DNA of 64,000 nt, from positions 1-64,000 of IMG/VR virus record IMGVR_UViG_3300038465_000055. One strand, written 5' to 3'. This DNA is from a virus. The notes under the pieces are model-generated. The model did not search any database. It saw only the letters and a list, made by a program, of their open reading frames with translations, and had not been told where the DNA came from. Position numbers and translations under genes: made by a program. Of the stretch, positions 14,504-33,576 are shown in pieces (the first letter of the stretch is position 1; each line of letters begins with the position of its first letter).

Positions 14504-15046
14504 ATGAGAAGGTTAATTTACGCTGCGGCTATGATAACCGCGATTTCACCAGCGATCGCCAACGAAGCGCCCGTCAAACCAGAACCGCCCAAGCCCACCA
14601 TGACCATCGACGAATGCATGACGGTGCTGGCTGGCCTCGAAGCGCTCGACGGCTACACGACGATCATCAAGGAGGGAAAGCCCGATGCTCAAGTCGTCGT
14701 TCGTTCCTATGTATTCGGCAACGGTGCGCTGCGAGACGATATCGCCCAAAACCTCACCGCCTTGCGTGACGTTCGCCGATCGACGCAGGAAACTCAGAAC
14801 GCGATCGTCAAAGAGATCGGGAAGGGTGCCAACGATATCCCTGCACAGATCATGGGGCCTGACGGCAAGCAGTTAATCTCGAACCCTGACTATGTCGAAT
14901 ATGTCAGGCAGGTTAACCAGCTCACCGCCAAGCCGTGCAACGCCATCCCCGTTCCCATCAGGCTCAAGGATCTGAAACTGGACATCAACGAAATACCAAA
15001 CTCCACCATCTCAAATCTCGGAAAGATTCTTGTCCGGGATAAGTAA
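14504..15046 (+). CDS. Signal-peptide protein with a DUF1617-like helical body
   Basis: RBS GAGGAG; MRRLIYAAAMITAISPAIA leader; IAQNLTALR...IRLKDLKLD..IPNSTISNL. Confidence 0.7.
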   Translation: MRRLIYAAAMITAISPAIANEAPVKPEPPKPTMTIDECMTVLAGLEALDGYTTIIKEGKPDAQVVVRSYVFGNGALRDDIAQNLTALRDVRRSTQETQNAIVKEIGKGANDIPAQIMGPDGKQLISNPDYVEYVRQVNQLTAKPCNAIPVPIRLKDLKLDINEIPNSTISNLGKILVRDK

Positions 15047-15074
15047 CAAGCATAACAATCTTGGGGATCGATTC

Positions 15075-15113
15075 GCCCGCTGCCGGTGGACCGGTGGCGG
15101 GCTCCTCATTTTT
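15075..15113 (+). terminator. Probable terminator of the rightward operon
   Basis: GCCCGCTGCCGG/CCGGTGGCGGGC stem followed by TCCTCATTTTT. Confidence 0.55.
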
Positions 15114-15126
15114 GGAGCTGCACACA

Positions 15127-15333
15127 ATGGCCATCAACACAAGCAACGAATTCCAGCAATCAAAGACACACTGCCCGGCAGGACATCCCTACACGCCAGA
15201 GAACACAATTCAGGTAAAATCGACCAAGCCGGGGCACTTCAAACGGCAATGCCGCAAATGCAAGAACCTCTCCGCCTCCAGACGCAACAAAGAAAAAGGA
15301 CCGCAAGCAGATAAGCCAGCGGCCCGAGTCTAG
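15127..15333 (+). CDS. Stand-alone HNH-associated Zn domain protein (KTHCPAGHPY...RQCRKC)
   Basis: GGAG RBS; same motif type as the C-terminus of the HNH at 7082. Confidence 0.6.
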   Translation: MAINTSNEFQQSKTHCPAGHPYTPENTIQVKSTKPGHFKRQCRKCKNLSASRRNKEKGPQADKPAARV

Positions 15334-15365
15334 GGAGGAAACGCCCAAGGAGGGCAGCGATAGTG
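15288..15365 (-). ncRNA. mmgR: suhB/MmgR (alpha-r8)-family small RNA
   Basis: Minus strand reads GCCCTCCTTGGGCG-TTTCCTCCCT-AGACTCGGGCCGC...GCGGTCC-TTTTTCTTT: hairpin, conserved UUUCCUCCCU decamer (15332-15341), terminator. Confidence 0.75.
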
Positions 15366-15385
15366 CGAAAGGTCGGACGGACGAC

Positions 15386-15394
15386 TGCGATGCA
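15386..15394 (-). promoter_or_regulatory. PhaR/AniA-like box upstream of the sRNA
   Basis: TGCATCGCA (TGC-N3-GCA) about 20-30 bp upstream of the sRNA. Confidence 0.45.
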
Positions 15395-15446
15395 CTACCG
15401 CCGACTCGATCATAACCCTCTATTGCCGATTCCCTCAATAGATTTG

Positions 15447-16253
15447 TCAGCGCGCAGTGCGGCCCTTGGCCATAAAGGGGATTACAGCCGTGACGCCGAC
15501 GAACAGCAGCATCAGGATAGCCTGTATCCACCCGATCACGTCACTGCGGCCTGATCCGACGCTAGAATTATCCGCCTGCGCTCGGCTTAACTTTTGCACC
15601 TCACCAATAAGCGAAGCGAGCGCCGGATCTTGAAATTTCTGTTTGCCAAGACCTTCAGCTCCGGTTTGTTCAAGCGCTGTTAGTCGTGTGCCAATAACTC
15701 CAAATTGTGCTTGGATACCAGCAAAACTGTTCTGCAAATTCCTAGCCTGTTCATCCGCGGTGTTCTTCACAAGCGTTCGCACATCGTCCGCTGATTTTGT
15801 GACCTGAGCGCTCAACACCAACGCGGCGTCGTCGCCCTTCTTCGCCAGCGCCGCAGCCGTTGCGTTTGCGCGCTCGCTGGCGACCGAAACGTTGTTGGTG
15901 TCAACAATACGGATGGCATCCAGCCTGTTGGCTTCCGCTTTGCGCAGCTTGTCTTCGTAGTCAGCTCGCAATGAGGAATTTTCTTTCAGGCTGTTATATC
16001 GCAACTCCTCCAGCGAGGCTTGTGCTACTCTCAAATCGTCCTGCCGCTTGACCGTAAGATCCAGAACATCGTCAATCCGCTTGACGGCGGCTAACACCAG
16101 ATCGAGAACATTCTTGGTGGGATCAATAGCGGAATTGCCTCTGGAATCTACCGGCTGGCCGGGCTTGGACGGCGCTATAGCCGCATCCTGTGCCGACACT
16201 GGCGAAGAAAGCATCGCCATGAAGGTCAATGCTGCTAGAGCCGCCTTTAACAT
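15447..16253 (-). CDS. Signal peptide + coiled coil + C-terminal TM protein (lysis region)
   Basis: MLKAALAALTFMAMLSSPVSA leader; C-terminal hydrophobic helix. Confidence 0.7.
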   Translation of the reverse strand: MLKAALAALTFMAMLSSPVSAQDAAIAPSKPGQPVDSRGNSAIDPTKNVLDLVLAAVKRIDDVLDLTVKRQDDLRVAQASLEELRYNSLKENSSLRADYEDKLRKAEANRLDAIRIVDTNNVSVASERANATAAALAKKGDDAALVLSAQVTKSADDVRTLVKNTADEQARNLQNSFAGIQAQFGVIGTRLTALEQTGAEGLGKQKFQDPALASLIGEVQKLSRAQADNSSVGSGRSDVIGWIQAILMLLFVGVTAVIPFMAKGRTAR

Positions 16254-16263
16254 TTGTCTTTTT

Positions 16264-16638
16264 TCACCCCCGGCCGAGATAGGACTCTATCAAATGGCCA
16301 GCGAAACCTACCACAGTTCCGACCGCAAGAATGAAGGCCCAGAATAATTTGCTGGCCCACATCACACCGCCTCTGCGAGCGATATCGGTATTATACGCCG
16401 AGATCGTCGGCATGACATTATCGTCGAGATCATTTTTTAATTCTGCGACGTCTTGAATGGCACCGTCGATCTTGCTGGCCATCTGCCCTACTTGTGCTGA
16501 CAGGCCCTCAAAACGTTCGTAAAGTGCCTTGCGTGATGCTGCCGCCGCGGTCTCCTGAGACTTCCATTGATCAGCCATGCCACGCACCGTGCCCTCAAGG
16601 TCACCTAGCGCTCGAATAAGTGAGTTAGGAGTCGCCAT
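16264..16638 (-). CDS. Coiled-coil protein with C-terminal TM (holin-associated, DUF1515-like)
   Basis: ALGDLEGTVRG...SRKALYERFE; TM at C-terminus. Confidence 0.65.
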   Translation of the reverse strand: MATPNSLIRALGDLEGTVRGMADQWKSQETAAAASRKALYERFEGLSAQVGQMASKIDGAIQDVAELKNDLDDNVMPTISAYNTDIARRGGVMWASKLFWAFILAVGTVVGFAGHLIESYLGRG

Positions 16639-16655
16639 CGGTTTGTGCTTTTCCC

Positions 16656-16686
16656 CAGCCCGAAGGCGTCTATCACCTTCGGGCTG
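16656..16686. other. Stem-loop 3' of the outer-membrane protein gene
   Basis: CAGCCCGAAGG / CCTTCGGGCTG; no U-tract on the minus strand. Confidence 0.55.
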
Positions 16687-16704
16687 CTTACCGTTTTCTC
16701 CTAA

Positions 16705-17517
16705 TCAGAATGCTACCATAACGCCAGCAATATATTTGGTGCCAAGGACTGCCTTAACCTGCGCTGGACCGCCGGTGACGGCACCATTTCCCTGAAACAC
16801 GGTTTCGATGTACTCGCGGATGGCGGAGCCATTGCTCAATTGCTCCATCAAGTCGATCTCGATCTTGGGCGACCAAAGCTCCACCTTGTTCGATCCTGCA
16901 CCGAGATAAGCAATCGTCACGTCATCCATGCGGACGCCAGCGCCGAAGCCTGCTTGGATGTTGGTCGCTGCGATTCCTGTCGGCAGGAGAGGAAACGGCG
17001 CGATCGAGCTGAAGGGATTGGGAAGATTCAGCAGCCCGAATGTGCTCTGGATCAGCGACACTGGCATCCATACGAGGCCAGTGGCCTCTGCGGAAAGCGG
17101 ACCGGCAACTGAGAAGCCTTGGTTGGCGCCATTGAAGTTGGTCGCAGATACCTTGCCTTCAACGGCGTAGGCGAGCAGGCTGGATCTGCTGCCCCACGCA
17201 TAGCCCACGGCGGCGCCGATACCCGCGGTTGTCGTGGTCAAGCTTGCGGAGTTGACGCCCGGTACTGTGGCGTTAACCGGACCACCGCCGGCCTCGGTGA
17301 ACAAGCCGACATAAAGACCGGAGCTGCCATAGGGATATCCGGTAAGCCAAGATGGCCCAATGGCTGATGGCGCCTTCGTATAGAGCACAGGCGATGGAGC
17401 AACTACCGCCTGAGGTAACGGAGCGGCGACGGCAGCACCCGGCCCCGGAGAGTTCTGGGCCATCGCAGAAGTCGAAAACAACGCTGCGATCGCCGTCGCA
17501 AGTAATAGCTTCTTCAT
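16705..17517 (-). CDS. Outer-membrane beta-barrel protein (rhizobial Omp25/RopB-like)
   Basis: Signal peptide MKKLLLATAIAALFSTSAMA; YTKAP motif; GLYVG; GAAVGYAW; C-terminal Phe. Confidence 0.75.
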   Translation of the reverse strand: MKKLLLATAIAALFSTSAMAQNSPGPGAAVAAPLPQAVVAPSPVLYTKAPSAIGPSWLTGYPYGSSGLYVGLFTEAGGGPVNATVPGVNSASLTTTTAGIGAAVGYAWGSRSSLLAYAVEGKVSATNFNGANQGFSVAGPLSAEATGLVWMPVSLIQSTFGLLNLPNPFSSIAPFPLLPTGIAATNIQAGFGAGVRMDDVTIAYLGAGSNKVELWSPKIEIDLMEQLSNGSAIREYIETVFQGNGAVTGGPAQVKAVLGTKYIAGVMVAF

Positions 17518-17639
17518 GGTGAAAATCCCCTTTGGTTGCGGAGATCAGAAACTACGCCAGCGCTCTATCAGCGATAGGACGATTTACTAAGCAGACTGAC
17601 GAATTAAGTTAGCTGTGACTTATCCGCAACAAGAGAATA

Positions 17640-18029
17640 TCAGGCAGCCTTCGTCGCATCGGCGGCCATCAGGCTTATGGCCTTCGTCGCATCGGCGGCC
17701 ATCACGTCTGGATGCGTGATCGTCACGACAGCTTTGGCCGTGTCCGCGGCTCCCGTAACAGATGCCGGTTGCATCTTCTTTGCGATCTCAATCGCCGCGG
17801 CCTGCGTCGCGGTATCCGTCAGCTTCTTGAGATACGCTTCTGCTTGCACGTGTCCGTCTTGTACCCACCACGACCAGAACGCTCCACCGGCCGCGACCGC
17901 AGCTCCAGAGAATGCTTCGAGGCCGGGACCGGCCGAGATAAGACCATGGGTAACAAGAGCACCACCCGCGACCTTCAAGACGCTGGTGAACATCAGAGTG
18001 ACGAACGGTTTGATGGCATCCCAATTCAT
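17640..18029 (-). CDS. Putative holin
   Basis: Two hydrophobic segments ending AFWSWW; in lysis cassette. Confidence 0.6.
   Translation of the reverse strand: MNWDAIKPFVTLMFTSVLKVAGGALVTHGLISAGPGLEAFSGAAVAAGGAFWSWWVQDGHVQAEAYLKKLTDTATQAAAIEIAKKMQPASVTGAADTAKAVVTITHPDVMAADATKAISLMAADATKAA
17647..17704. repeat. 25-bp direct repeat, period 33 bp (MAADATKA x2)
   Basis: GCCTTCGTCGCATCGGCGGCCATCA at 17647-17671 and 17680-17704. Confidence 0.9.
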
Positions 18030-18553
18030 GATGAAGACTCCCCTGTGTGTGAAATTTCGACATGCGTGCTGAGAATGAGGAACAGCATTAGCGGACTCCA
18101 GCGATGGAATGGCACAACTGTGGGCCATTTGAAATAGGGGAACGGGTTTGTCCGCAACGCCCAACCCATTTCAGCCGAACAGATCAGATTGCCTATTGTG
18201 TGCAGGTTCAAGGCCGGATCGACAAAATTGATGATTGACTTGATATCGTAGGGTGCTCCGACTCGCTTATCGATGTGATCATAGAAGCAGTTTTGCTGAT
18301 CGATCGTGCATGGCAGATCCACAAATTTCTGAGACATTGATCCATCAGGCAGTTTCATCAGGCTTGCTATATCGTACCCCGCCGGTCGCTTCTTCATGCC
18401 GCCGTCCGCGTGCTGCCCGATCCACCATTGCTTGTCGAGAGAAACGCATTCGCAATGGCTAGGGACGAAAGGCATCGCGAGTCCCGCCTGAAATCTGATG
18501 TCGGCTGATATCAAATCGTTCTCGGTAACAAATCTGAGTGTTATGGCCGGCAC
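18026..18553 (-). CDS. Permuted papain-like (NlpC/P60, YiiX-type) enzyme
   Basis: SHC (His) precedes GAPYD and ICS (Cys). Confidence 0.75.
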   Translation of the reverse strand: MPAITLRFVTENDLISADIRFQAGLAMPFVPSHCECVSLDKQWWIGQHADGGMKKRPAGYDIASLMKLPDGSMSQKFVDLPCTIDQQNCFYDHIDKRVGAPYDIKSIINFVDPALNLHTIGNLICSAEMGWALRTNPFPYFKWPTVVPFHRWSPLMLFLILSTHVEISHTGESSS

Positions 18554-18556
18554 AGT

Positions 18557-18742
18557 TTATCCCTTAAGTTTTTCTGCCGCGACCTTTCTGGCGCTCGCTT
18601 GTAAGGCAATCAACAGATCGAAATCCAGCGCCAGCCGCTTTTCCTGCTCGGCGCCCTTCAGCGACGTTGCATTGATGAGCTGACCGGTATGAAGGCTGAC
18701 GAGAGCCGCTTTCAGGATCTCCTCATACTCTTCGAGCGTCAC
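18557..18742 (-). CDS. Hypothetical protein
   Basis: 61 aa, tightly coupled in lysis cassette. Confidence 0.5.
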   Translation of the reverse strand: MTLEEYEEILKAALVSLHTGQLINATSLKGAEQEKRLALDFDLLIALQASARKVAAEKLKG

Positions 18743-18996
18743 GGCGACTTCACTTTCTGCTCGATCAGCATGGCGATGGTTTCGACGACCGGAAGCACCT
18801 GAATGGCATCTGGATACATTTTCTTGAGGATCGGAATGGCCCTCGCGATAAGCGGCTTCATCTCCTCCGCGATCGGCTTCAGCTCCTCCCAGCCTGCCAT
18901 TAGTCGGCTGAATTCCGGTTGATCCGAATTGAGCGCTTCGATAGTTGCTTCAGGAACGCCCAAGACTGTTAGGCCAATATCGATGATCGTGCTCAT
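18739..18996 (-). CDS. Hypothetical protein
   Basis: 85 aa, ATGA-coupled to endolysin. Confidence 0.6.
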   Translation of the reverse strand: MSTIIDIGLTVLGVPEATIEALNSDQPEFSRLMAGWEELKPIAEEMKPLIARAIPILKKMYPDAIQVLPVVETIAMLIEQKVKSP

Positions 18997-19688
18997 GACA
19001 CAAGCACCGGAGTTGCAACGGTCGGTACCGAAACTGTAGGCATCGAAACCGTAAGACCCTCGATCTGGATCGAGCTGTCGATCGCCATCATCATAGAGAG
19101 CAGCGGCGCCGTTCCCTCCTGCACGTCGATATATTTGGCGTTGTACACGTGATCTCGAACGTACTTTCCGGAAATATAAACGTCACTTCCGGACCACACG
19201 TAGGCCGAGGGAACGCCCATCGCGGCATATCCGAGCCCGTTGAACTCCTCCCAGAGAGTGAGAACACCGCCGATCGTCCAAAGGGGCCACTTCGCTGCAT
19301 AGGGCGCCGAGTTGATCAGGACATCGACGCAGCACCGAGTCCAAGCATCGTGGCCGGGCGTGACATCGCCTTCATGCGCGAGATAAGGCCCCATGTTAGC
19401 CGGGACATTGTGCGAGCGCTGGTTGAGCGGATCACCCTGTCCGAGCTGCTTATCCCAATGCGGAGGCCCGCTATACTCGCGCTCCGATGCGATCGCGATA
19501 AACCACCACGGCACCGGCTGCATCTTCTGTTCGATCAGCCGATCGGTAACGCCCTGATAGCGCGCCTTCGAAACCGGATCACATAGCCGCATCGCGGACT
19601 TGTGGAAGGCCGGAAGTTTGTCGGCCTTGACGTGCATGTTCACCCAGCGATGCGCGTTGACGGCTTCGAGCGCTACAATGTTGACCAT
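18993..19688 (-). CDS. Endolysin (lysozyme-like family common in rhizobia)
   Basis: VPWWFIAIASERE..LGQGDPL..EEFNGLGY..PSAYVWSGS..YISGKYVRD. Confidence 0.85.
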   Translation of the reverse strand: MVNIVALEAVNAHRWVNMHVKADKLPAFHKSAMRLCDPVSKARYQGVTDRLIEQKMQPVPWWFIAIASEREYSGPPHWDKQLGQGDPLNQRSHNVPANMGPYLAHEGDVTPGHDAWTRCCVDVLINSAPYAAKWPLWTIGGVLTLWEEFNGLGYAAMGVPSAYVWSGSDVYISGKYVRDHVYNAKYIDVQEGTAPLLSMMMAIDSSIQIEGLTVSMPTVSVPTVATPVLVS

Positions 19689-19707
19689 GACGATATCTCC
19701 CTTCCTT

Positions 19708-22110
19708 TTATTGCCTCGTGGCAACATCTAACTGCATGACCCCGACACCTCCATTGTATCCAGTGCCAAAATTATTAGCATTTTCTTCTGTGGCTGAAAC
19801 AAAGTGAAACCCAGAGACCGCTGGATAGTTGGCAATTGAGATTGGGCTCGCAAAAAAAGAATTTGCAGTAGCCGTTTCCATCAGAGCACGAGCATCAAAA
19901 CAAGTCGTTCCGTCAAGGCATGTACCTGTGACAGAACCAGACCCCGCCGAAGCGGATGTAAATGCCTGCACCTGATAGCTTGCCGTAAAACCATTCAGGG
20001 GAAGTCCAACGACAAACGATGCCCTGTTATTGACTGAGTTGTCGGCCGCACGGACCGCGCTCGCTCCGGATTGCAACCATACACTCACAGTGTCGGTGAC
20101 CGTCGTTTTGACGTCGACTTGGTTGTACATATTCCAGACACCGAACATCGCAGCGCCGCCACCGCCTGCAGCGCTACCCCAAACATAACTTATCGAACCA
20201 TTTGCAATGGCATACACGGTGCCGAGATACGTGGCTTGGTTCGCAGCGACCGAACCATAGTTCGTCGATCCGTTGAAGCAATTCGCCAGCGCATTCTTGT
20301 TTGTTGGATATGGCCGCGTGATCTGATCGATGACGGTGTAGCCGGTGCCGCGCGACGTATTCGATCCTCCGGTATCGGCCGCCCAGCCGCCGCCGCCGCC
20401 GCCAGCAGTTGACATCGCCAAGCAAATCCTGTTGGCGCCACCATGCACCCACCAAACGTCATAGACCTGAGATCCGACGACCTGACCTGCGCTCGCCGCT
20501 GCGACCATCGCATCGATAACCTCGCATGAGGCGACCGTGTCGATCAGATCAAGCGTGCCATTGAAATACGGGACTCCGCCGCCCACCGCGCAATCATATC
20601 GCAGCGTCGTCTGGTTCGCGCACGACGACCCGCCGCAAGACGTTGCGAGCATGACCGGGGTATTAGCGGCCAGCGTGATGCGACCCTGCGGCGCGATGAC
20701 GGCGCCCGCAACCGTGCATGTTCCGGTGCTTGTAATGCTGCACGTTCCAGAGACAGCTATTCCAGATCCCGCCGCGATAATAACGTTGGTCACCGTTCCA
20801 GTGCCGCCCGCCGTCAGCCAAGCCGGCACGCCGGTCGGCCCTTCGGAAAATACCTGCGTGCCGCTATTGTTACCGGCCAGCGTCGTCCAGATGGTGCCGT
20901 TCCAGAAAGCGAAGTCGCCAACTCGAGTCGGAACAGGCATCAATGCCGTGATCGCAGCCGGCGCCCCGCTCTGACCCGTACCGCCATTTGCGATCGGCGC
21001 AATACCCGTCACGCCTCCGTTGCCGCTGGCGCCTAGATTTATCGCCGACAGCCACGAACCCGAGATCGTCCCAGAGTTGATGGCCGAGCCCGCGATCGAT
21101 GGCGTACCGCCGAGCGCATAAGTTCCGGTGATCGTGCCTGTGATCGCCGGCCCGGTGCCAAACGTGACAGTCGAATTGAATATAGCGCCGCCTGTGACAG
21201 CCAGAAAAAAACCGCCGATGGTCGCGCCGCCCAAAGCCAGCGACGTTCCCGCTGCCACACCGAGCGACGGCGTCGTCAAGGCCATATTGGTGGCGGCGAT
21301 CCCGCTGGGTAGCGTTGCGGAGAATGACGGAACGTTCGATCCGTTCGTCACCAACACCGAATTAGCAGCGAGCGCTGCCGCCGTCATGGTTCCACCGTTC
21401 GTCGAATTGTACGGAACGCCAGTGCCGCCGCTTATGGTCGTGGTTCCATAGGTGATGCCGGTAGCTGGCGCCACGATCGAGCACGTGCTTCCGAGGGCGC
21501 ATGGGATGCCGTTCACGGTCGTGAGGGCAACCGCTCCATTCACATAGTAGTTTCCGCTGACATTGATGGTGCCCGCGCCGGTCAGCGTTCCCATCGTCGT
21601 GCCGACCGTTACGCTGCCGTCTTGCTCGACCCCAAACCTGTCCGTCAACGTCGCGCTGCCATTCGGCGTAACGCCAAAGCGCAAATAGGTTCCATTCTGG
21701 CCCACGCTCCAATTCTGTGCCGCGTAGGTTCTGATCGCCGCCTGCGGGCCGACCACTCCGGTTCCGTTATAGCCGAACGCATTCAACGAACAGACTTCAT
21801 CCGCGGACTGCAACGTTGTCGGCGCCGCTTCCGTGCCATCCCAGCGCACGCAACTATAGCGCGGTACGCTAGCGTAGGCGTCCAGCTCCGTCCTTACCGT
21901 CGTTCCAGCAGCTCCGACAATCTGCAAACCGCTGCCAGCCAAAAAAGCCGGCGTCGTCTGCGAGGCGTTTAGATTGATGATCTGGGGAGAAAGAAACGTG
22001 TTGATCGCGGTCGTGAATGCGCAGTTGACGCACGAAGGCGGACTTGGCTGCGCCGCTGCACCGACAACAGAAACAGCCAGAGCGAATAGTGCCGCGATAA
22101 AACTGCGCAT
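19708..22110 (-). CDS. Tail fibre/spike-like protein with N-terminal signal peptide
   Basis: MRSFIAALFALAVSVVGAAA leader; G/T-rich fibre repeats (PIANGGTG, GTGTVT, PQGRITL, GVWNMYNQ); 16 Cys, mostly in local pairs. Confidence 0.8.
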   Translation of the reverse strand: MRSFIAALFALAVSVVGAAAQPSPPSCVNCAFTTAINTFLSPQIINLNASQTTPAFLAGSGLQIVGAAGTTVRTELDAYASVPRYSCVRWDGTEAAPTTLQSADEVCSLNAFGYNGTGVVGPQAAIRTYAAQNWSVGQNGTYLRFGVTPNGSATLTDRFGVEQDGSVTVGTTMGTLTGAGTINVSGNYYVNGAVALTTVNGIPCALGSTCSIVAPATGITYGTTTISGGTGVPYNSTNGGTMTAAALAANSVLVTNGSNVPSFSATLPSGIAATNMALTTPSLGVAAGTSLALGGATIGGFFLAVTGGAIFNSTVTFGTGPAITGTITGTYALGGTPSIAGSAINSGTISGSWLSAINLGASGNGGVTGIAPIANGGTGQSGAPAAITALMPVPTRVGDFAFWNGTIWTTLAGNNSGTQVFSEGPTGVPAWLTAGGTGTVTNVIIAAGSGIAVSGTCSITSTGTCTVAGAVIAPQGRITLAANTPVMLATSCGGSSCANQTTLRYDCAVGGGVPYFNGTLDLIDTVASCEVIDAMVAAASAGQVVGSQVYDVWWVHGGANRICLAMSTAGGGGGGWAADTGGSNTSRGTGYTVIDQITRPYPTNKNALANCFNGSTNYGSVAANQATYLGTVYAIANGSISYVWGSAAGGGGAAMFGVWNMYNQVDVKTTVTDTVSVWLQSGASAVRAADNSVNNRASFVVGLPLNGFTASYQVQAFTSASAGSGSVTGTCLDGTTCFDARALMETATANSFFASPISIANYPAVSGFHFVSATEENANNFGTGYNGGVGVMQLDVATRQ

Positions 22111-22121
22111 GTGATCTCTCT

Positions 22122-22430
22122 TCAAAACCAAACGACAGAAAATTTGTGACCGTTGGAAGCTGCGTTGACCGAGGTTATCGACGTTTGACCGGGAATGATG
22201 GGCCAACTCGCGCCGGGGTATAGCACGAAGGTTGTCCCGTTCCCCACCAAACCCGCCGGATTTACCGGATCGACATACAGATTTTCCGGCGCCCCGAGCC
22301 CCTGATCCGTTGCCGATATCGGATTGGTTATGAATCCGCCATTCGGGGCGCCGGGAATAACCTCGACGGGCGTCCCACCGTTTGTAACCACCGAGGTGAG
22401 ACCCGGTACCGGGGTGACTGCAACGGTCAT
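22122..22430 (-). CDS. Small beta-sandwich protein paralogous to the N-terminal domain of the 24639-25616 baseplate protein
   Basis: Shared GGxIxNP...DQG..PExL..D..NPA.L...TTF.L.PG...VNAA..GHKFS. Confidence 0.8.
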   Translation of the reverse strand: MTVAVTPVPGLTSVVTNGGTPVEVIPGAPNGGFITNPISATDQGLGAPENLYVDPVNPAGLVGNGTTFVLYPGASWPIIPGQTSITSVNAASNGHKFSVVWF

Positions 22431-22432
22431 TT

Positions 22433-23278
22433 TTAAGATACCCCTGTGAATGGCGGAATTTTCCAAGCGTCGATGTTTGATTCCGTCAAGTCCTCAATAT
22501 CACTTTGGACCCCAGCGGCCCAGCGCGTAACCGCGTCCATCCCCGCCTTGCTCTGCTTTTGCTGGTTAAGAAATTCGGTATCGGCCGCCGGCCGCTGCGC
22601 AGCCTGAAAGACCACCTGATCAGCGACAGATGCTTGCAGTGGCGCAACGCTGTCTGTGATTACTTTTATTTTTGCCTGCGCCGCAGCGCGATCCGCGTCT
22701 GTCTTGGCCGCCAACATTTGAACCGTTAGATCCTGCAATGGAAGTTGGGCCGTCCTGATTTCCACCATGACAGCTTGCAATCTCTGGCTATCGGATAAAG
22801 CAATATCCCCCTCTCGAATCGTGAGCGCGCGACGTTTCCCCGGAGGTGGCGCAATCTTTTCCATCTCCTGCTGTTCCATGGCCGTTACGGAATTCAGAAG
22901 AACGTTCTTCTTCGATCTTAGGATCTGATCAGCCGTGGGATCGTCGTTCACGACTTCATAGTCAGAGATATATTTTCCATCCTTGCCGAGAACGATGGAC
23001 GCCTCGACATCCTGGGAGCCGATCGGACGTTTTACCGGGGCATGACGCGATAGTTTTTCCTCCTGCCATTTGGCTACAGCATGGCTCAAATCGTTAGAGG
23101 CTGTCTTACTGCTCTTGAATTCCGCCCATGTCGGGCAAGGCTTGACCGGGCCGAGCGCCTTGAGTTCATCCGCCACGATCTTGTTTCGCTCCGCCCACAG
23201 ATTCATTTCATCGACATGGAGCTTGACGGTGTCGTCGAATCCTTCCGGCAATCTTGACTTCAAAATCTGATGCGTCAC
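22433..23278 (-). CDS. Tail-fibre-associated (assembly/chaperone-like) protein
   Basis: Follows the tail fibre; helical; ends DIEDLT...IDAWKIP. Confidence 0.6.
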   Translation of the reverse strand: MTHQILKSRLPEGFDDTVKLHVDEMNLWAERNKIVADELKALGPVKPCPTWAEFKSSKTASNDLSHAVAKWQEEKLSRHAPVKRPIGSQDVEASIVLGKDGKYISDYEVVNDDPTADQILRSKKNVLLNSVTAMEQQEMEKIAPPPGKRRALTIREGDIALSDSQRLQAVMVEIRTAQLPLQDLTVQMLAAKTDADRAAAQAKIKVITDSVAPLQASVADQVVFQAAQRPAADTEFLNQQKQSKAGMDAVTRWAAGVQSDIEDLTESNIDAWKIPPFTGVS

Positions 23279-23293
23279 GACGACATTCCTTTT

Positions 23294-24616
23294 TCAAAGT
23301 TTGAGATACCACGTTCCGCTCATCGCTAGATGGACAGTGTTGTGGGCGCCGCCGCCGGTGTTGTACGAAAGAACCGACTGACCGCTGGTAGCCCCCGATC
23401 CCGATCCGGAAACTGCAATCTGAACCGGAGACGGAGAACCAATCTGTAGGATTGGAGATGGGCCACCTTCGAGGTTAACGTTGTACACCGATCCAGTAAT
23501 GATATCCGTGTAGTTTGATACGCCAGTGATGCTGACGCTGACGGACAATGCTCCTCCGCTCGAATCGATCTGCGGAATCTCGGTCGGAGTCAGCGTATGC
23601 AGGTTTTGTCCAAGAATAGATCCCGGTATAGTCGCGCTCCCCGAGCTGAATGGTACACCGCTCAACAACGTCGTGGCAGGGCCGCCCATCGTGTCGACGC
23701 CGATCGGGCTCTTGCCTCGCATGTCGAGCGTCGTGATCGCGCAGTTTGCCGCAAAGTCCGCCGCTGCATTGACGCCTCTAGCGACAAGAGCGCCAGCGCT
23801 GTTACGAAGCGGACATTGCACGTTCGAAAATTCGTTCCAGTGCCATTCGAACAAATTGATCGTGGTTGGATCAGCAAACCCTGTGGCATTCGACGCCGCA
23901 TTGCCTATCGTCAGTGTATTGGCGGTAACCCAACCCGATATCGTTTCCGACGTCGGACGCCACTTGAAATCGCCAGTGGTAGCTATGCCAGCGCTGGACT
24001 GAGATTCCTGAGATGCACTGATGAGCTGATAAGGGCCGCTCCCGGGATCGTAAATCGTGAAGGCGCCCGCAGCCACAATAGCGCCCGTACCAAGAGCGCT
24101 GCCGTTGGGATTTACGATCGCGAAGCTTCCGGCGCCTAGATTGAGCGTCGATGGTCCAGTGTTGCTTGTGGCAGCAAGGATATCGATCACCATGCCTTGC
24201 TGGCGCGTGGTGACTGCCGGGCTCAAAACGACAGCGTAGGCGTTGACTGTTCCGGTATCCTGCGCTGATGTCGCGCTTCCAGATTGGGCCTGCACGATCT
24301 GCATCATGAGGGCCATCGTTCCAGCGGTCGGTCCCATCTGGAAGATATCGCCAGCATTCCATGCCAGCGCAACGGTGCCTTCCTGACCGCGCAGGATCGT
24401 GAAGGTATCCGCAGCCGTCGCGGTCACCCACACCACCTCGGTGATCAAACTGTTGCCAGCCGCGACAAGAGTGCCGATGAAAAATTTATTACCAGCGATC
24501 ACCGGAAAATTTGAGCCCTCGCCTGCAACCAAGGTCAGACTTGTCGCCGCCGCAGTGATCGGACTCGCCAGCGTGCCAGTCGCGTTATCCTTGAACAGCA
24601 TCAGCGGAAAAGTCAT
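23294..24616 (-). CDS. Baseplate-attached tail fibre with collar-like domain
   Basis: FKDNATGTLA..RGQEGT..AWNAGD N-terminus; DMRGKSPIGVD, GQNLHTLTPTEIP, TGGGAHN. Confidence 0.85.
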   Translation of the reverse strand: MTFPLMLFKDNATGTLASPITAAATSLTLVAGEGSNFPVIAGNKFFIGTLVAAGNSLITEVVWVTATAADTFTILRGQEGTVALAWNAGDIFQMGPTAGTMALMMQIVQAQSGSATSAQDTGTVNAYAVVLSPAVTTRQQGMVIDILAATSNTGPSTLNLGAGSFAIVNPNGSALGTGAIVAAGAFTIYDPGSGPYQLISASQESQSSAGIATTGDFKWRPTSETISGWVTANTLTIGNAASNATGFADPTTINLFEWHWNEFSNVQCPLRNSAGALVARGVNAAADFAANCAITTLDMRGKSPIGVDTMGGPATTLLSGVPFSSGSATIPGSILGQNLHTLTPTEIPQIDSSGGALSVSVSITGVSNYTDIITGSVYNVNLEGGPSPILQIGSPSPVQIAVSGSGSGATSGQSVLSYNTGGGAHNTVHLAMSGTWYLKL

Positions 24617-24638
24617 GACGCGAGCCCCTAGCTATTAT

Positions 24639-25616
24639 TTATGATGACGCGATCGAAACATTGAATGTGTACTGAAACGGCAGCTCCACGGCACCCGACT
24701 GAATCGCCTCTTGCAGAATAACCGAATTTGGAGTTAGCGGCAGGATGATATCGATCACGAACCTCGACGGATAGCTCACGCTGACCGAATAGGTATTGTC
24801 TATGACTGGATCTGTCCCGTTTGGCCCATTCAGGAATCGCAAGATGCGCCGCTTTAGCCACTGAGGATTGAACGTCTGGCCGTCCCCGCGATAGAGCCGC
24901 CACGTCATGATTCGCTTGAATATATCGTCTGAGGTCACCGTGACGTTGTCGGCGCCGATTGCCTTGTAGCCGTTCCATACAAGCTGGTTATAGAGCGCCG
25001 TGTTGTAAGGTCCAAGATTTTGATTGAGCCCCGACGAAAGAGTCGGCCGAAGCATCCCGTAAAGACCGTCAGCTACCCAATCGAGCAACGTTCCAGCAAT
25101 CAAAGAAGAGGTATAGATCGGAAGATTTATCTGGTTGAACCAATCCACGAATTGCTGCGCATAGGAATTGTACGACGCGAACATAGCTTGCAGATCTGCG
25201 TCGTCCGCATACTCCTGATAGAGATACGCCTTTATGACATTGACTAGACCGGTTGGCCCCGAGGGAGGAAACGTCGCGCCAGTCGATACCAGAGAAACTA
25301 ACGGCTGAATGATGATAGCGCTGAATTTGTGCCCGACCGTCGCCGCGTTGACATTTAGGTTCGTCGCCAAACCGGGCGGCACTTGGATGGACTGCCCCGG
25401 CGCCAGCCTGAACGTCGTCGGAGATTCGACGAGAGATGCTGGATTGATGAAATCATAGAACAGTGTTTCAGGAATCGGGATTCCCTGATCCCGCGCCGCC
25501 GCCGGATTGGCGATGATGCCACCTTGTACGCCGCCAAAAATCGCAACCTGCGAAACACCACCGATAGCGATGGATGTCGATGCCGCTTTGAAAACTGAAA
25601 CCGGAGCAGCGCCCAT
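24639..25616 (-). CDS. Baseplate wedge protein (gpI-like) with extra N-terminal domain
   Basis: AYLYQEYADD..LLDWVADGLYG..SDDIFKRIMTW; follows baseplate J. Confidence 0.75.
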   Translation of the reverse strand: MGAAPVSVFKAASTSIAIGGVSQVAIFGGVQGGIIANPAAARDQGIPIPETLFYDFINPASLVESPTTFRLAPGQSIQVPPGLATNLNVNAATVGHKFSAIIIQPLVSLVSTGATFPPSGPTGLVNVIKAYLYQEYADDADLQAMFASYNSYAQQFVDWFNQINLPIYTSSLIAGTLLDWVADGLYGMLRPTLSSGLNQNLGPYNTALYNQLVWNGYKAIGADNVTVTSDDIFKRIMTWRLYRGDGQTFNPQWLKRRILRFLNGPNGTDPVIDNTYSVSVSYPSRFVIDIILPLTPNSVILQEAIQSGAVELPFQYTFNVSIASS

Positions 25617-25621
25617 ATATG

Positions 25622-27067
25622 CTACCCCTGCGCAATCGAGATCGCCGCAGCGCTAGTCGAGAAATAGCTTTCCTGATCGCCCGCGACGATCCCCGTGCCG
25701 GCCTGCGGTGGCGTGCTGATCCCGTTGATTGAAACCGTGGGGATGACGCGCGTGAGATATGCCGGATTTAGCACCGTGACGATCGCAGCCTGAAATGCCG
25801 CGATCAGCTCGAATTCGTTGATCGGCTGTCCTACCGTGATCCCATTGATGTATGCAGCCACCGCTGGCGCCCCGAGCTGCGCAATCGATGCCGTGTTTAC
25901 GAAATTAACCTGAGTCGTATTCCAGATGATGCTGACCGTCACCGTCTGCTGCGGCGGCGTGACATAGGTTACGTTGTAGATATCCGGGAAATTATTGATG
26001 GAAACCGAGATATTGCGGGCATTCGGCGTGGCAACTCCGCCGCTTACGTAAGGAGAAAATCCCGTCGAGTTTATGCTGATCGTGAAATTCTTTTCATCTA
26101 TCACCGCAACGACCGTCGTCGGGATGCCGTTGATCTGCACCATGCCGAGAACGCCGTTCAGCTCGACCGGATTTCCTGCGACGTATCCGTGATTAAGCGT
26201 GGTCGTCACTTGCGCATTTGCAGCTTGTGTAATGTTCGACACCGTCATCGACGAGCCGATCAATCCGGTGATGTCGACACCCGAATTCAGGATGGCATTG
26301 GCGACAAGATTTGGATCGCCTCCGCCAACGATGATTTCCCAGCCTCCATTGTTCGGCGCCTGAAGGATAGAAACGAGCTGCGATTGCACGCCGGATATTT
26401 GCTCCAACGCCGTTCGCAAGGTCGTCTGAAAACCGGTGCCTGCGGAAAGAAAACCCTGCTGCACGCGCGCGCGATACGATGCCGCCGTCTCACCTGTGGT
26501 CGAAGGAATTCCTGCAAGCGGATTGTTCACCGTCAACGTCACGTCGTCGGGCACCGATGTCACGAGCTGCTGCACCGTGCCGGGAGGTACCGCCCACGAT
26601 CCCACCACCGAGGCCAGAGCAAAAAGCGGCGCTGTCGTGCCGTTGCCAGATCCATTGTTTGCCCCGATGATTCCTCCGTCTGTGATCGTGTATTGATAAG
26701 TGCCATCGCTGACGATGAATCCGATCCCGATAACGAATCCCGGCGTTCCGGTGAACACAACGAAAACGCTGGTATTGCTGGCACCTCCGATCTGGATTCC
26801 TGTCTGCTGTCCCTGCTGCACAAGCAGGAATTCATTGGCGCCAAGCGCGGTGAGCGAGTTGATAAGATCGACGCGAAATTGGTCGCATTCCAGAATCGCG
26901 AAGGTATCGGTTTGGTTGACGTCGGAAATAAGAGAGGCCGGCAGCCGTCCAGTGTAGCCCGGCGCCGCCGCAGCGATCGCGGCAATGAGACTATCCAGCA
27001 CCGCTTGAGGCTGTAGCGGCGTGAGTCCGGCAGCCGTCACCACAGTCGGAAGATCGGTGGCACTCAT
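25622..27067 (-). CDS. Baseplate J-like protein
   Basis: VVFTGTPGFVI..VSDG, ETAASYRARV, VANAI; FCCH-like insert. Confidence 0.88.
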   Translation of the reverse strand: MSATDLPTVVTAAGLTPLQPQAVLDSLIAAIAAAAPGYTGRLPASLISDVNQTDTFAILECDQFRVDLINSLTALGANEFLLVQQGQQTGIQIGGASNTSVFVVFTGTPGFVIGIGFIVSDGTYQYTITDGGIIGANNGSGNGTTAPLFALASVVGSWAVPPGTVQQLVTSVPDDVTLTVNNPLAGIPSTTGETAASYRARVQQGFLSAGTGFQTTLRTALEQISGVQSQLVSILQAPNNGGWEIIVGGGDPNLVANAILNSGVDITGLIGSSMTVSNITQAANAQVTTTLNHGYVAGNPVELNGVLGMVQINGIPTTVVAVIDEKNFTISINSTGFSPYVSGGVATPNARNISVSINNFPDIYNVTYVTPPQQTVTVSIIWNTTQVNFVNTASIAQLGAPAVAAYINGITVGQPINEFELIAAFQAAIVTVLNPAYLTRVIPTVSINGISTPPQAGTGIVAGDQESYFSTSAAAISIAQG

Positions 27068-27432
27068 CCCGGAACCCCTACATTGATCGTCGGTATCACC
27101 GCGCCTGTCTTGGTGACGATGTTAACGTTATAGGTCGGATTGCCATCCTCGTCGGCCGGGCCGGGCGCGATCGATAGATTGGCAAAATATGGAGCGAACT
27201 GCTGCTGCGTGATGGTCGATTGGTAATCCGGATGCGTCTGCGTGATCACCGAGTTCATCGCGTTGATACCATAATTGGCGTTGTACGGAGCCTCATTGAG
27301 ATTGAGTTTCAACACCTGAATCAGCGTCGTTACCCAAACCCAAGTGTCATCGCCGGTCACCGGATCAGTCGCGACCTCAACCCAGATCGTCGGATTTCCG
27401 TTTTCATCCTTGATGCGGCCGAACGTGCGCAT
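27064..27432 (-). CDS. Baseplate wedge/sheath initiator-like protein
   Basis: MRTFGR..LIQVLKLNLNEAP; position between spike and J. Confidence 0.7.
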   Translation of the reverse strand: MRTFGRIKDENGNPTIWVEVATDPVTGDDTWVWVTTLIQVLKLNLNEAPYNANYGINAMNSVITQTHPDYQSTITQQQFAPYFANLSIAPGPADEDGNPTYNVNIVTKTGAVIPTINVGVPG

Positions 27433-27472
27433 CAGGCAGACCTCGCGATTTCACTGGCTTGGGTAAGGTTGG

Positions 27473-28120
27473 TCATACCGGCGGCCCCGTGTCGCCGCTG
27501 CCAGTCTGGACGCCGCTGTGAATGTGAGCGCTCAATATCTTGCCTTCCGAATTTATGGTTCCGGTCGTCGTGATGTTGGCGCTACCGAAATCGATAAGGC
27601 CGTCCGTGATCTTGATGGTTGTGGCGCCCACGGTGATGTCGACTTCCGTTTCTGATCCGACGATCTTGACGTTACCGTTCTGCGATCGAGCGATAAACCC
27701 TTCCGGCCCGTAAATCTCGTATTTGTTCGGATCGGTCGGCGCTGTGAATCCCTTGTTACCCAGAGGGGCAAATACAAGAGCCCCAAGATTGGCTGGTTGA
27801 GCGAGCGTAGCCGTTCCGCCGCCGAGCCCGGTAATCCCACCTAGTCTGGCGTCCGCCGGTTTTACCCAGCCCTTGCAGCCAACCTGAATCGGAACGCGCG
27901 CATATTCCGAGCCCTCTACCGGCACCGTCACAGTGGTGAACGTCGCCGTCTGTCCCGGTGTCTGGATCTGAAAGCTGACGGTAACGACCGATCCCATCAC
28001 CGCGGTCACCGAGCACGGCAGCGCATAGCCTGATCGAACAAGTGCACCGTGTATTTTCTTTTCCGTGAATTGATTGATGTAGCGCTGGAACGGACTGCGC
28101 TGAGAGTCGCCGCTGCTCAT
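27473..28120 (-). CDS. Baseplate spike (gpV/Gp138-like)
   Basis: LPCSVTAV..PIQVGCKG; C-terminal HIHSGVQTGSGDTGPP. Confidence 0.85.
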   Translation of the reverse strand: MSSGDSQRSPFQRYINQFTEKKIHGALVRSGYALPCSVTAVMGSVVTVSFQIQTPGQTATFTTVTVPVEGSEYARVPIQVGCKGWVKPADARLGGITGLGGGTATLAQPANLGALVFAPLGNKGFTAPTDPNKYEIYGPEGFIARSQNGNVKIVGSETEVDITVGATTIKITDGLIDFGSANITTTGTINSEGKILSAHIHSGVQTGSGDTGPPV

Positions 28121-29187
28121 GACGTCGATGCTCCCGTGTTCGCAGACTGCTGCGTCGGATAAGCATCGAACACGGTAACCCACGCGCCTGCGTCGGACTG
28201 TCTGAAATTTCCGATATGCCGCATCGACTGGATGAAGAACGAACCTTGAAACGCCACTTTCTGATTAACGAGGAAACCTTGCGCCTGCGCGCTGTTAGTC
28301 ACCAACGTCTGCGGCATCTTCACAGACTGACCGACTTTAAGATCAGCGCGCATCGCGCATTTGAAATTGATCAGCGGCGCGTTCTGCCAAGAGGGCTGGC
28401 CTATCAGATCAACGAAATTGATTTGCGCGGAGTTGCCACCGGGAGTTGTCGTGCTTCCAGCCTGCGAAGGAAATGTCGCCGCCGAAGATCCTGACGTCGA
28501 CGGCGATGACGATCCTGATCCTCCCATGCCGTCGAAAACGTTGAACGTTTTCTGAAACGGAACGATGCTCACTCCGGGATAGTTGGTGCCTCCGATGATT
28601 GCCTTGCTCGTCTCATTCGCCCATTGGGCAAACGAAGTGAGATCCGGATAGTGACCATACTGGCTTTCAGGAAAAACCAGAATCGAGCTTATGTTGCTGT
28701 TCACCGAGAAGTCTGGATAGGCTGTCGTCAACGCGCTCTTGATCGCGGTACCCATCGTTTGACCCTGAGGCCAAACCAGAGAAAGGTTTTTTGGATTAGG
28801 CGTTCCGCCGGTGATCGAGCTATTGCCTGTTGGGGCGTCGCCTGCGCGAATAATTAATGCCAGCCATTGATCAGTGTCGATCCAGTTGCCGAATGCATTG
28901 AGAATGTAACCCTGTGCCAAGAGGCCAGCCTGCGCAGGATTGGCCAGCGGAAGACCCTTCGCAAATCCTCCATAGACGCTGATGCTCTTGTTGATCAGGT
29001 TGTTCGCCTGACTGAGAGTCGAAAGCGGAACGCCCCATATTTTTACCAGCGCGTCGCCAAAGGGAAGATGGGCAGACACAACCGGAAGATCAATCTCAAC
29101 CTGCAAGGCATTCGGATTGGTCGAGCCATCACCGTTGAGGCTCGTATAGGTGGCGCCGCCGCCGATCTGGATTGAGTAATAGCGCAT
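28117..29187 (-). CDS. Baseplate hub protein
   Basis: MRYYSIQI..LIGQPSW..MRHIGNFRQSDAGAWVT. Confidence 0.8.
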   Translation of the reverse strand: MRYYSIQIGGGATYTSLNGDGSTNPNALQVEIDLPVVSAHLPFGDALVKIWGVPLSTLSQANNLINKSISVYGGFAKGLPLANPAQAGLLAQGYILNAFGNWIDTDQWLALIIRAGDAPTGNSSITGGTPNPKNLSLVWPQGQTMGTAIKSALTTAYPDFSVNSNISSILVFPESQYGHYPDLTSFAQWANETSKAIIGGTNYPGVSIVPFQKTFNVFDGMGGSGSSSPSTSGSSAATFPSQAGSTTTPGGNSAQINFVDLIGQPSWQNAPLINFKCAMRADLKVGQSVKMPQTLVTNSAQAQGFLVNQKVAFQGSFFIQSMRHIGNFRQSDAGAWVTVFDAYPTQQSANTGASTS

Positions 29188-29190
29188 CGG

Positions 29191-29793
29191 TCAACCCTTC
29201 CATCGACGAAGGGCCGCCTCACTCATTCGTTTCCGAGTTTCCTCAGACCTCTTTCGGCCGACATTGATCGTGTTGCCTTTTTTGAAACAATTGTTCTCCG
29301 TCCTCGGTAGGGTATTGCCCACTCCTCCTCCTCCGCCGATCCTATTTGGCACCAATTCTCCAGATAGAAGCCTGCGAGTCATACGCTCGCTCAATACCCT
29401 CCTCGCTTCTGGGGAAGCGAATTGAGCCTTTGCTTTTCGACTAAGCTTGGCTCGAGTCTGCTCAGAAAAATTATGAGCACCACCACCGCCATCTGACCTA
29501 TTCCAAAGCGGCCCCTTTAATTTGTCAGCACGACCTATCTCATCGATCAAGCGGCGCTCGTTTTCGTAAGCCTCCTCTCTTGTGAGCCCACAAATTATCT
29601 TCTTGGGAACCACAGAAAGACCGCAGCCGATCGCATGAAGGATGCCAAGATTTTTTGAAGGGCTAATATTTTTCGCAAGCTCCCTAGCCGCATTTCTTAT
29701 GTGCATGTTCATGCGGTATCCGCTTCCCATTCCGATATATCTTGGGATGGGATCATCACCGACAAATAGGCCATAGACATAGAACTTGTTCAT
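29191..29793 (-). CDS. GIY-YIG-family homing endonuclease with NUMOD3-like tail
   Basis: FYVYGL..RYIGMG..R; LTREEAYENE; LWNRSDGG; GRKRSEETRKRMSEA. Confidence 0.85.
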   Translation of the reverse strand: MNKFYVYGLFVGDDPIPRYIGMGSGYRMNMHIRNAARELAKNISPSKNLGILHAIGCGLSVVPKKIICGLTREEAYENERRLIDEIGRADKLKGPLWNRSDGGGGAHNFSEQTRAKLSRKAKAQFASPEARRVLSERMTRRLLSGELVPNRIGGGGGVGNTLPRTENNCFKKGNTINVGRKRSEETRKRMSEAALRRWKG

Positions 29794-30281
29794 GGCGACA
29801 CTTCTATTTGATTGTTGGCGATACGGTACACCAGAGTCGAGTTGAAGTATCCAGCGGTCAGGCTGATGTTCTCGCTGGCGACGCCAAGCCTCGTCGCAGC
29901 TCCCGGATCGGCCATCAGCGGATAGGTGAATGTGTACCGGCCTGTGACATAGGCGAGCACCTGACCGTTGTAGGCGTCCGGCGTCGAGCCCGTGATCGTG
30001 AGCGCCACCGTACTGCCGATTCGGTATGGAATGGGATTCGCAAGCGTCCCTGTCACAAAACCATTGGCCCATGACAGCTCCGCAAGATTGGCCCCGTTCG
30101 GAGATCCCACCATTGCCTTGTTGACGATCAGCGTGCCGTCGAGACCTGCGATCGCGAGATAGTATCGCTGCGCCGCCATATTAAAGGTGACGGTCGCGTT
30201 GTAGACCTGACCGTCCAGCGTGGGCTGGAACGTATAGTTCGCGGTCGGTACCGGCGTGAAATCATAATAGGTGATGCTCAT
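29790..30281 (-). CDS. Baseplate plug-like protein with FCCH-like insert
   Basis: FQPTLDGQVYNATVTFNMAAQRYYL; NISLTAGYFNSTLVYR. Confidence 0.7.
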   Translation of the reverse strand: MSITYYDFTPVPTANYTFQPTLDGQVYNATVTFNMAAQRYYLAIAGLDGTLIVNKAMVGSPNGANLAELSWANGFVTGTLANPIPYRIGSTVALTITGSTPDAYNGQVLAYVTGRYTFTYPLMADPGAATRLGVASENISLTAGYFNSTLVYRIANNQIEVSP

Positions 30282-31018: not shown

Positions 31019-31056
31019 TGCCCTGAAGTTCCATGACTCGAGTCGTGGTTTTTACC

Positions 31057-32742: not shown

Positions 32743-32746
32743 GGCT

Positions 32747-33092
32747 TCAGAATATGCCCTTCTTGGCGATCACTCCGGTTAGCGTCGCCAGCGAGTTTAG
32801 TATATACCGCTGCCGAAACTCATGGGCCGTACTCCAATCAGCCTCCGGATTGAGATCTTCCATGAAATCGTGGAAGCCCTCGTTCGCCGTCCAATTCAGG
32901 ATGGCGGCGACAATCCCTTGGCTGTCTCTCCAGAACTGGCGATCGCGGTCAACGTCGGTAAGGAATTCCGATAGGCCGTAGAGTTCAATGATGTTGTGTG
33001 CGCATCCCAGAGCGTACCGACCTTTCGGCCCACTTCTAACAGCATCGCCAATTCTTTTCGCCTGCGCATAACCGAGTTGACAGTAAAAAAAA
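32747..33092 (-). CDS. Tail assembly chaperone, -1 frameshift extension (lambda GT-like)
   Basis: -1 frame open from the T8 run to a stop 4 bp before the tape-measure start. Confidence 0.55.
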
Positions 33093-33528: not shown

Positions 33529-33576
33529 GCAGACTCTCCCGTTGGCCGCCCGGTGAAGGCGGTTTGTCCTAAGACT

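Follow-up and report, generated by a model that had tools for sequence, protein, structure and literature searches.

A small RNA of the alpha-r8 (suhB/MmgR) family at the end of the late operon of a contractile-tailed phage

Introduction

Can a phage carry a copy of a bacterial regulatory RNA and, if it does, is this copy still under the control of the signals that govern the bacterial gene? The question is raised by a locus near 15.4 kb in a 64-kb stretch of an IMG/VR virus record (IMGVR_UViG_3300038465_000055, positions 1 to 64,000), which was analyzed over its whole length and is called the window in what follows. An initial annotation, made from the letters of the DNA, had placed there a small RNA (sRNA) of the suhB/MmgR family, also called alpha-r8, just behind a long series of late genes. 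We have examined whether the locus belongs to this family, from where it could have come, how it may be expressed and what it could do to the infected cell.

The alpha-r8 RNAs are Hfq-associated. The best reference points for the phage copy are MmgR of Sinorhizobium meliloti and the Sis RNAs of Caulobacter crescentus. MmgR limits the accumulation of polyhydroxybutyrate (PHB) and lowers the levels of phasin (PMC7143759, PMC8401924). Its gene is repressed by AniA and activated by NtrC (PMC7143759), and a conserved dyad is found between the -35 and -10 boxes (PMC8401924). In Caulobacter, SisA represses many mRNAs, mostly those of TonB-dependent receptors and transporters, by means of a 10-mer that pairs with the ribosome-binding region. 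Compensatory mutations prove that this repression depends on the seed, and a sponge RNA, CrfA, neutralises SisA during carbon starvation (PMC12559287). We found no description of phage-borne alpha-r8 RNAs in the searchable literature, a search that did not cover the 2016 phylogeny paper of the family.

Gene neighbourhood of the small RNA

The source record is the complete genome, 74,737 bp long, of a contractile-tailed phage (IMG/VR virus; CheckV 100%). The minus strand, from ca. 58.7 kb down to 15.4 kb, codes for the late functions: terminase, portal, head protease, major head protein, tail sheath, baseplate wedge protein and lytic tail protein. On the plus strand, the region from 5.3 to 15.0 kb contains an exonuclease, RecT, an HNH endonuclease, a HerA-like ATPase and a DnaJ-domain protein. 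The sRNA is located at the point where these two blocks converge, 85 nt past the stop codon of the last late gene (Table 1), and the GC content is even across the junction. Gene content and completeness thus indicate that the sRNA lies inside a genuine phage genome, and its description as phage-encoded in the initial annotation was right.

The two immediate neighbours are less easily classified. None of the ORFs next to the sRNA gave a match in Pfam. The last late gene belongs to no PHROG family either, and a pattern-based search retrieved no relatives of it in IMG/VR. Its product has an N-terminal signal peptide, a long coiled-coil-like stretch and a C-terminal membrane helix. On the other side, the converging ORF corresponds only to the C-terminal zinc-ribbon part of an HNH endonuclease and looks like a remnant. 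Over its final 16 codons and the stop codon it runs antisense to the 3' part of the sRNA, with an overlap of some 45-50 nt, suggesting that the sRNA unit landed in or beside a decaying homing-endonuclease gene.

Table 1. Features at the junction between the late genes and the plus-strand block (coordinates in the window).
Feature	Position	Strand	Basis or remarks
Last gene of the long minus-strand late operon, 268 aa	15447..16253	-	Stop codon 8 nt upstream of the -35 box
Promoter-like -35 hexamer TTGAGG	15433..15438	-	Sigma-70-like match, prediction
Promoter-like -10 hexamer TATGAT, 18-nt spacer	15409..15414	-	Prediction; start near 15402
5' hairpin, 11-bp stem GGCGGUAGUGC / GCACUAUCGCU, 25-nt loop with a 4-bp mini-hairpin	15356..15402	-	Fold; outside the Rfam model
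TGCATCGCA (TGC-N3-GCA), candidate PhaR/AniA operator	15386..15394	-	Sequence match
Rfam RF00519 suhB/mmgR match	15284..15362	-	58.1 bits, E 2.3e-9, model positions 1-77 of 77
Short hairpin GCCCUCCUUGGGC, 4 bp, CCUCC in the loop region	15343..15355	-	Rfam match and fold
Single-stranded stretch (17 nt) with the anti-Shine-Dalgarno seed UUUCCUCCCU at 15341-15332	15326..15342	-	Fold
Intrinsic terminator, stem 15325-15298 followed by UUUUUCUUU	15289..15325	-	Rfam match and fold
Converging 68-aa ORF, only the C-terminal zinc-ribbon part of an HNH endonuclease	15127..15333	+	phrog_826, E 5e-12, positions 163-211 of 281

Family membership and structure

The assignment of the phage sRNA to the alpha-r8/MmgR family is secure. 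In a cmscan search with Rfam 15, the covariance model RF00519 ("Makes More Granules Regulator RNA") was matched over its full length and above its gathering score of 41 bits. This was the sole Rfam match above threshold in the window and also in the whole 74.7-kb record. The initial annotation had named the family and had proposed the Rfam suhB model as a check, and on both points the search agrees with it. All the motifs that it had listed (hairpin, decamer, terminator arms, U-tract and TGCATCGCA) are likewise found on the minus strand where it had put them.

The 118-nt stretch between 15403 and 15286 folds into four successive elements, namely a 5' hairpin, the short hairpin, a single strand of 17 nt and the terminator. 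The energy of this fold was -48.4 kcal/mol (z = -5.7), and none of 200 shuffled sequences was as stable. The four pairs of the short hairpin were invariant in all 40 of the chromosomal and viral copies aligned. Directly after this hairpin comes the seed UUUCCUCCCU, which is the exact 10-mer of the family (PMC12559287) and was unpaired in both the minimum-energy and the centroid folds. The arms of the terminator are GGGCCGC (15325-15319) and GCGGUCC (15304-15298), and the U-tract occupies 15297-15289, all on the minus strand. A simple terminator scan missed this structure because its loop limit was set to 8 nt.

The sRNA terminator is the first strong one after about 40 kb of minus-strand late genes. 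We scanned the region 15200-34000 and found no convincing intrinsic terminator upstream of it in the late genes, so that late transcripts plausibly end at the sRNA. The suggestion of the initial annotation that the element closes the long late transcript is therefore plausible, the sRNA following directly on the last late gene.

Primary alpha-r8 copies are typically adjacent to the gene of an N-formylglutamate amidohydrolase, a setting that is not required of paralogs. At the phage locus the flanks are instead a late gene and the HNH fragment, which points to an accessory copy, like the extra copies present in Bradyrhizobium-type genomes.

Upstream of the RNA, TTGAGG-N18-TATGAT (15438-15409) was the only sigma-70-like site in the region 14900-15700 (one found, 0.3 expected from shuffles). 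This predicted promoter agrees with the consensus at nine of 12 positions; over 19 kb, matches of this quality were not enriched (six found, 10.1 expected). The TATGAT box precedes by 7 nt the GCGG that opens the Bradyrhizobium-type 5' stem, and in the Bradyrhizobium-type chromosomal genes a CATATT is found 8 nt ahead of the homologous stem. This similar spacing suggests that the phage RNA probably measures about 113 nt. The 70-80 nt assumed originally are probably too short.

The 5' hairpin is itself a conserved structure. In the copies of Bradyrhizobium/Xanthobacteraceae type, the order of elements is CTTGC(A/G), a spacer with TTGTGCA, CATATT, 8 nt, and then GCGGUAGCGC, a loop and GCGCUAUCGC, with the family hairpin immediately after. 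We aligned 40 Bradyrhizobium-type chromosomal and viral copies. MAFFT misplaced the 5' stem arm of the window's copy because of its 25-nt loop insertion, and this stem was read from its own fold; the covariation counts describe the other 39. In these, the homologous stem was 94.9% paired, four pairs were changed on both sides and many G-U pairs were present, and the observed covariation was reached by none of 500 shuffles. In the window, the stem GCGGUAGUGC / GCACUAUCGC has kept its pairing through an exchange of C-G to U-A.

Origin and distribution

The core of the phage sRNA, which begins with the 3' arm of the 5' hairpin and extends up to where the terminator begins, shows 96% identity across 51 nt with chromosomal copies of Bradyrhizobium type. 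Genomes of this type contain 2-7 copies. One of them is canonical, with a score of 70-75 bits and the regulated promoter, and the 1-6 further ones have scores of ca. 30-63 bits and unrelated upstream sequence. A Bradyrhizobium altum assembly (G020; L328, L332, L335-L338) gave seven RF00519 matches, one canonical (75 bits, regulated promoter) and six divergent (ca. 31-53 bits, five of them above the cut-off). The upstream regions of the divergent copies were unrelated, and two pairs of these copies had near-identical flanks, for which reason they look like repeated mobile or prophage units.

We searched the same model in the phages most similar in their capsid. Among 19 phage records with a major capsid protein 60-71% identical (15 of them at least 90% complete), not one had an RF00519 match above the cut-off, indicating a sporadic acquisition of the sRNA gene in this phage lineage. 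With a predicted promoter, a terminator, a position between modules and this absence from the capsid relatives, the gene looks like a sporadic, moron-like capture. As no close phage relative carries it, its conservation since the capture is judged from one sequence. One of the capsid relatives (L323, G013:C1:58345-58416) gave a weak RF00519 match of 23 bits. Its layout is like that of the phage sRNA, with a promoter-like TTGAAC-N17-GATACACT, a short hairpin, a single-stranded UUUUUCUCCCG and a strong terminator, and it could represent an anti-Shine-Dalgarno sRNA of analogous type in that related phage.

The relatives of the capsid protein among cultured phages and plasmids are enterobacterial, and those in cultured phages infect Gammaproteobacteria. 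The relatives of RecT are also mostly enterobacterial, chiefly from Klebsiella. A related capsid gene was not found in any of 301 genomes of the Bradyrhizobium family, and a set of 401 alphaproteobacterial genomes gave a single distant homologue, with 39% identity. It is from the sRNA alone that we infer an alphaproteobacterial host.

The alpha-r8 core pattern was found in at least 119 IMG/VR contigs. Under strict criteria, a clear terminator follows 91 of the 113 distinct viral copies listed; in the other 22, GC hairpins are accompanied by weak U-tracts. Unannotated copies are present as well in three cultured phages, ppBeUSDA76-1 (62.8 bits), Mwe-JY08 (62.8 bits) and ppBdUSDA122-1 (32 bits). 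A sorting of the neighbours of the viral copies by ORF orientation was discarded, since for the HNH gene of ppBeUSDA76-1 it disagreed with the strand given in the annotation.

Some of these copies deserve separate mention. Mwe-JY08 (PP395640.1), deposited as a 'Microcystis' phage with a cyanobacterial host, has a full alpha-r8 sRNA at 2495-2578, overlapped on the opposite strand by an annotated hypothetical CDS. To our knowledge, the family is otherwise known only from Alphaproteobacteria, and the recorded host of this phage may deserve a second look. In a viral subclass (L002, 3964-4087, and ca. 24-28 others such as L024, L031, L039 and L096) a terminator hairpin takes the place of the upstream promoter region and is succeeded by a conserved CATAGG(G/T)TGTGCGG box, and in the two Bradyrhizobium phages the RNA runs straight into the HNH-terminase genes. 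Many of the 22 copies with weakened U-tracts among the 113 listed belong to this subclass. In a 74-kb viral contig (L033, 2784-2942), the copy has no U-tract and leads directly into a tRNA-Thr gene on the same strand (2784-2859).

Alternative explanations

Along with the family, the initial annotation had recognised in TGCATCGCA an operator of the PhaR type. If so, the phage sRNA would be under the control of PhaR/AniA through this dyad and would respond to the carbon-storage state of the host. The 9-mer does conform to the published TGC-N3-GCA consensus. Besides, the identical 9-mer appears in some chromosomal alpha-r8 genes at -38 and -31 from the short hairpin, compared to -39 here, and in some of these genes (L148, L218, L228) it forms a second dyad just past the -10 box. 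RNA polymerase could still be obstructed if a repressor occupied the positions from about +8 to +16. However, the characterised dyad sits in the interval between -35 and -10 (PMC8401924), and TGCATCGCA is outside of it, ca. 8-16 nt past the predicted start and 14 nt beyond the -10 box, with no promoter-like site beside it and no dyad in the promoter spacer. Within the 5' hairpin the 9-mer takes part in the three uppermost stem pairs and supplies the six bases with which the loop begins; it belongs to a transcribed and covarying structure. At the place where CGC and GCG face each other in the Bradyrhizobium-type consensus stem, the TGC half of the 9-mer is paired with GCA, so that a compensated, structure-preserving change explains this half.

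The distribution of the dyad points in the same direction. A TGC-N3-GCA dyad within 70 nt upstream was found in 64 of the 126 genomic copies sampled (51%), in most cases between the promoter boxes, and in seven of the 113 distinct viral copies among the matches listed (6%), the expectation by chance being ca. 3% for both. The heptamer TTGTGCA, which Ceizel Borella et al. in 2018 reportedly connected with the induction of mmgR under nitrogen limitation, was found within the same distance in 22 of the 126 genomic copies, and was absent there from the window's copy and from all 119 viral copies listed. Being inside the hairpin, and with such dyads scarce upstream of the viral copies, TGCATCGCA is probably not an operator. 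We regard PhaR/AniA control as unlikely but give it some credit, because a few chromosomal genes have the same 9-mer at a similar distance.

The other explanations concern the function of the element and appear weaker still. It could be retained mainly to terminate the late operon, the likeness to an sRNA being what is left of a captured host fragment with no role in trans. Its place as the first strong terminator after the late genes agrees with this, and the capsid relatives do without the element, which is then dispensable for this type of phage. Yet a terminator has no need of a 5' hairpin, a short hairpin or the 10-mer, and all three are intact; the pairing of the 5' stem has survived a double change, a promoter-like site is found just upstream, and many unrelated viral contigs, as well as the three cultured phages, show the same architecture in full. 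We therefore consider this explanation improbable. Much less credit can be given to a cis-acting antisense RNA directed against the converging ORF (15127-15333). The overlap of both at the 3' end of the ORF is real, and the annotated converging CDS of Mwe-JY08 also overlaps the copy of that phage, but the ORF in the window is a mere fragment of an HNH endonuclease, the two converging ORFs are unrelated to each other and in other phages the sRNA has no antisense partner, which makes such a function very improbable. Finally, phage-borne partial tRNA genes serve for integration, and the sRNA might by analogy be an attP half-site directed at the mmgR gene of the host. Genes for small RNAs are among the known targets of integration, and the several copies in Bradyrhizobium-type genomes would fit. 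Against it, no tyrosine integrase or large serine recombinase domains were found in the 74.7-kb record, and the copy is no 3' fragment but complete, has a 5' extension and is preceded by a promoter-like site. This last possibility was rejected for the lack of such enzymes in the record, and we give it hardly any credence.

Proposed role

On balance, we think it probable that the locus is a host-derived sRNA of alpha-r8/MmgR type, carried as a self-contained moron at the junction of the late operon and the early module, and that it represses the host alpha-r8 regulon in trans. The RNA would be made from its own predicted sigma-70-like promoter, and it may also be produced as the 3' end of the late transcripts that enter its terminator. 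It would then bind Hfq and repress the same host mRNAs as the host alpha-r8 RNA through the seed that they share. The predicted targets are transporters and TonB-dependent receptors, as in Caulobacter, and the phasin/PHB output, as in Sinorhizobium. With the nitrogen- and carbon-responsive promoter elements gone, the phage would impose the state of the regulon regardless of the nutrient signals of the host. The imposed state could favour phage production over carbon storage and uptake under starvation, or reduce the levels of receptors. Among the possible gains for the phage are carbon for replication, suppression of the starvation response, titration of the sponge RNA and fewer receptors available to competing phages. 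A physiological role of this kind is plausible by analogy with the characterised members of the family, and we infer that the sRNA could redirect host carbon storage, as the initial annotation had proposed.

The targets are expected in the host and not in the phage itself. Complements to the 10-mer with up to one mismatch were absent near start codons from all the mRNA strands of the phage. The perfect complements found in the phage were only the antisense of the sRNA itself and a plus-strand site opposite a late gene. At this site (25262-25273), a 12-nt copy of the seed region, CGUUUCCUCCCU, is present in sense on the minus strand inside the late gene 24639-25616, and the plus strand is perfectly complementary to the sRNA seed (ca. 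0.01 matches would be expected by chance in the window). No hairpin or terminator follows this seed copy.

A more general proposal can be made only tentatively, as a possibility that we do not hold to be the likelier outcome. Phages of Alphaproteobacteria may repeatedly capture the host alpha-r8 riboregulator, strip it of the promoter that senses nitrogen and carbon, and bring it back into expression under their own control; it would then serve as a non-coding auxiliary metabolic gene and lock the host in a "feast" programme. Examples would be the stand-alone unit at the end of the late genes found here, the 3'-UTR form of Mwe-JY08 and the form that leads the late genes of the two Bradyrhizobium phages. 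Under the "feast" programme the host would store less PHB and make fewer of its starvation transporters and TonB receptors, aiding phage yield or blocking superinfection.

Comparison with known systems

With MmgR of S. meliloti the phage sRNA shares the full-length match to the covariance model, the short hairpin, the single-stranded UUUCCUCCCU and the intrinsic terminator. It differs in being encoded by a phage and not at a chromosomal locus, and in having the additional Bradyrhizobium-type 5' hairpin with the 25-nt loop insertion. Ahead of it there is neither TTGTGCA nor a dyad between -35 and -10, and a plain sigma-70-like site is predicted instead.

The alpha-r8 siblings SisA-D of C. crescentus have the same seed, and they are also extra copies of the family with unrelated promoters. 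This combination suggests in both cases a separate transcriptional control over shared targets. The Sis RNAs are chromosomal, and their targets and the CrfA sponge have been shown experimentally (PMC12559287), whereas the phage copy is known from its sequence.

Trans-acting small RNAs encoded as accessory genes by phages and prophages of enterobacteria have been described before, such as DicF, svsR and AgvB/AsxR (PMC5069750, PMC12803456, PMC4104026), and in common with them the sRNA found here is expected to act on host mRNAs in an Hfq-dependent manner. Those RNAs are phage-specific or directed against host sRNAs. The present one closely reproduces a conserved core sRNA of the host, seed included, and would for this reason mimic a host regulator and not add a new one.

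The closest parallels are the copies in ppBeUSDA76-1, ppBdUSDA122-1 and Mwe-JY08, which belong to the same RNA family although these phages are otherwise unrelated to that of the window. In Mwe-JY08 the copy is also placed at the end of the lysis/late genes and faces a converging gene; only ca. 30 nt separate it from the stop codon that ends the lysis cassette, which leaves no room for a promoter. The arrangement in the two Bradyrhizobium phages is different, the copy being situated behind a terminator and the CATAGG box and ahead of the HNH-terminase genes.

Significance

Phage auxiliary metabolic genes are nearly always discussed as proteins. The locus analyzed here adds a phage-borne member to a known sRNA family and is one instance of a recurring phage pattern, of which three cultured phages in GenBank already held copies that had passed without annotation. 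Closely resembling a conserved regulatory RNA of the host and sharing its seed, a single gene of about 113 nt could reprogramme a whole post-transcriptional regulon, in this case that of carbon storage and nutrient uptake. The case can be tested in Bradyrhizobium or Sinorhizobium, for which mmgR mutants and PHB and phasin read-outs exist.

The contrast in the upstream dyad between the genomic copies and the viral copies listed points to a deliberate rewiring of control and not to passive carry-over. With the family promoter elements lost from the viral copies, a phage could switch the host regulon on its own terms. For the family itself, these results suggest that part of what has been described as its "multiple copies and lateral transfer" comes from phages.
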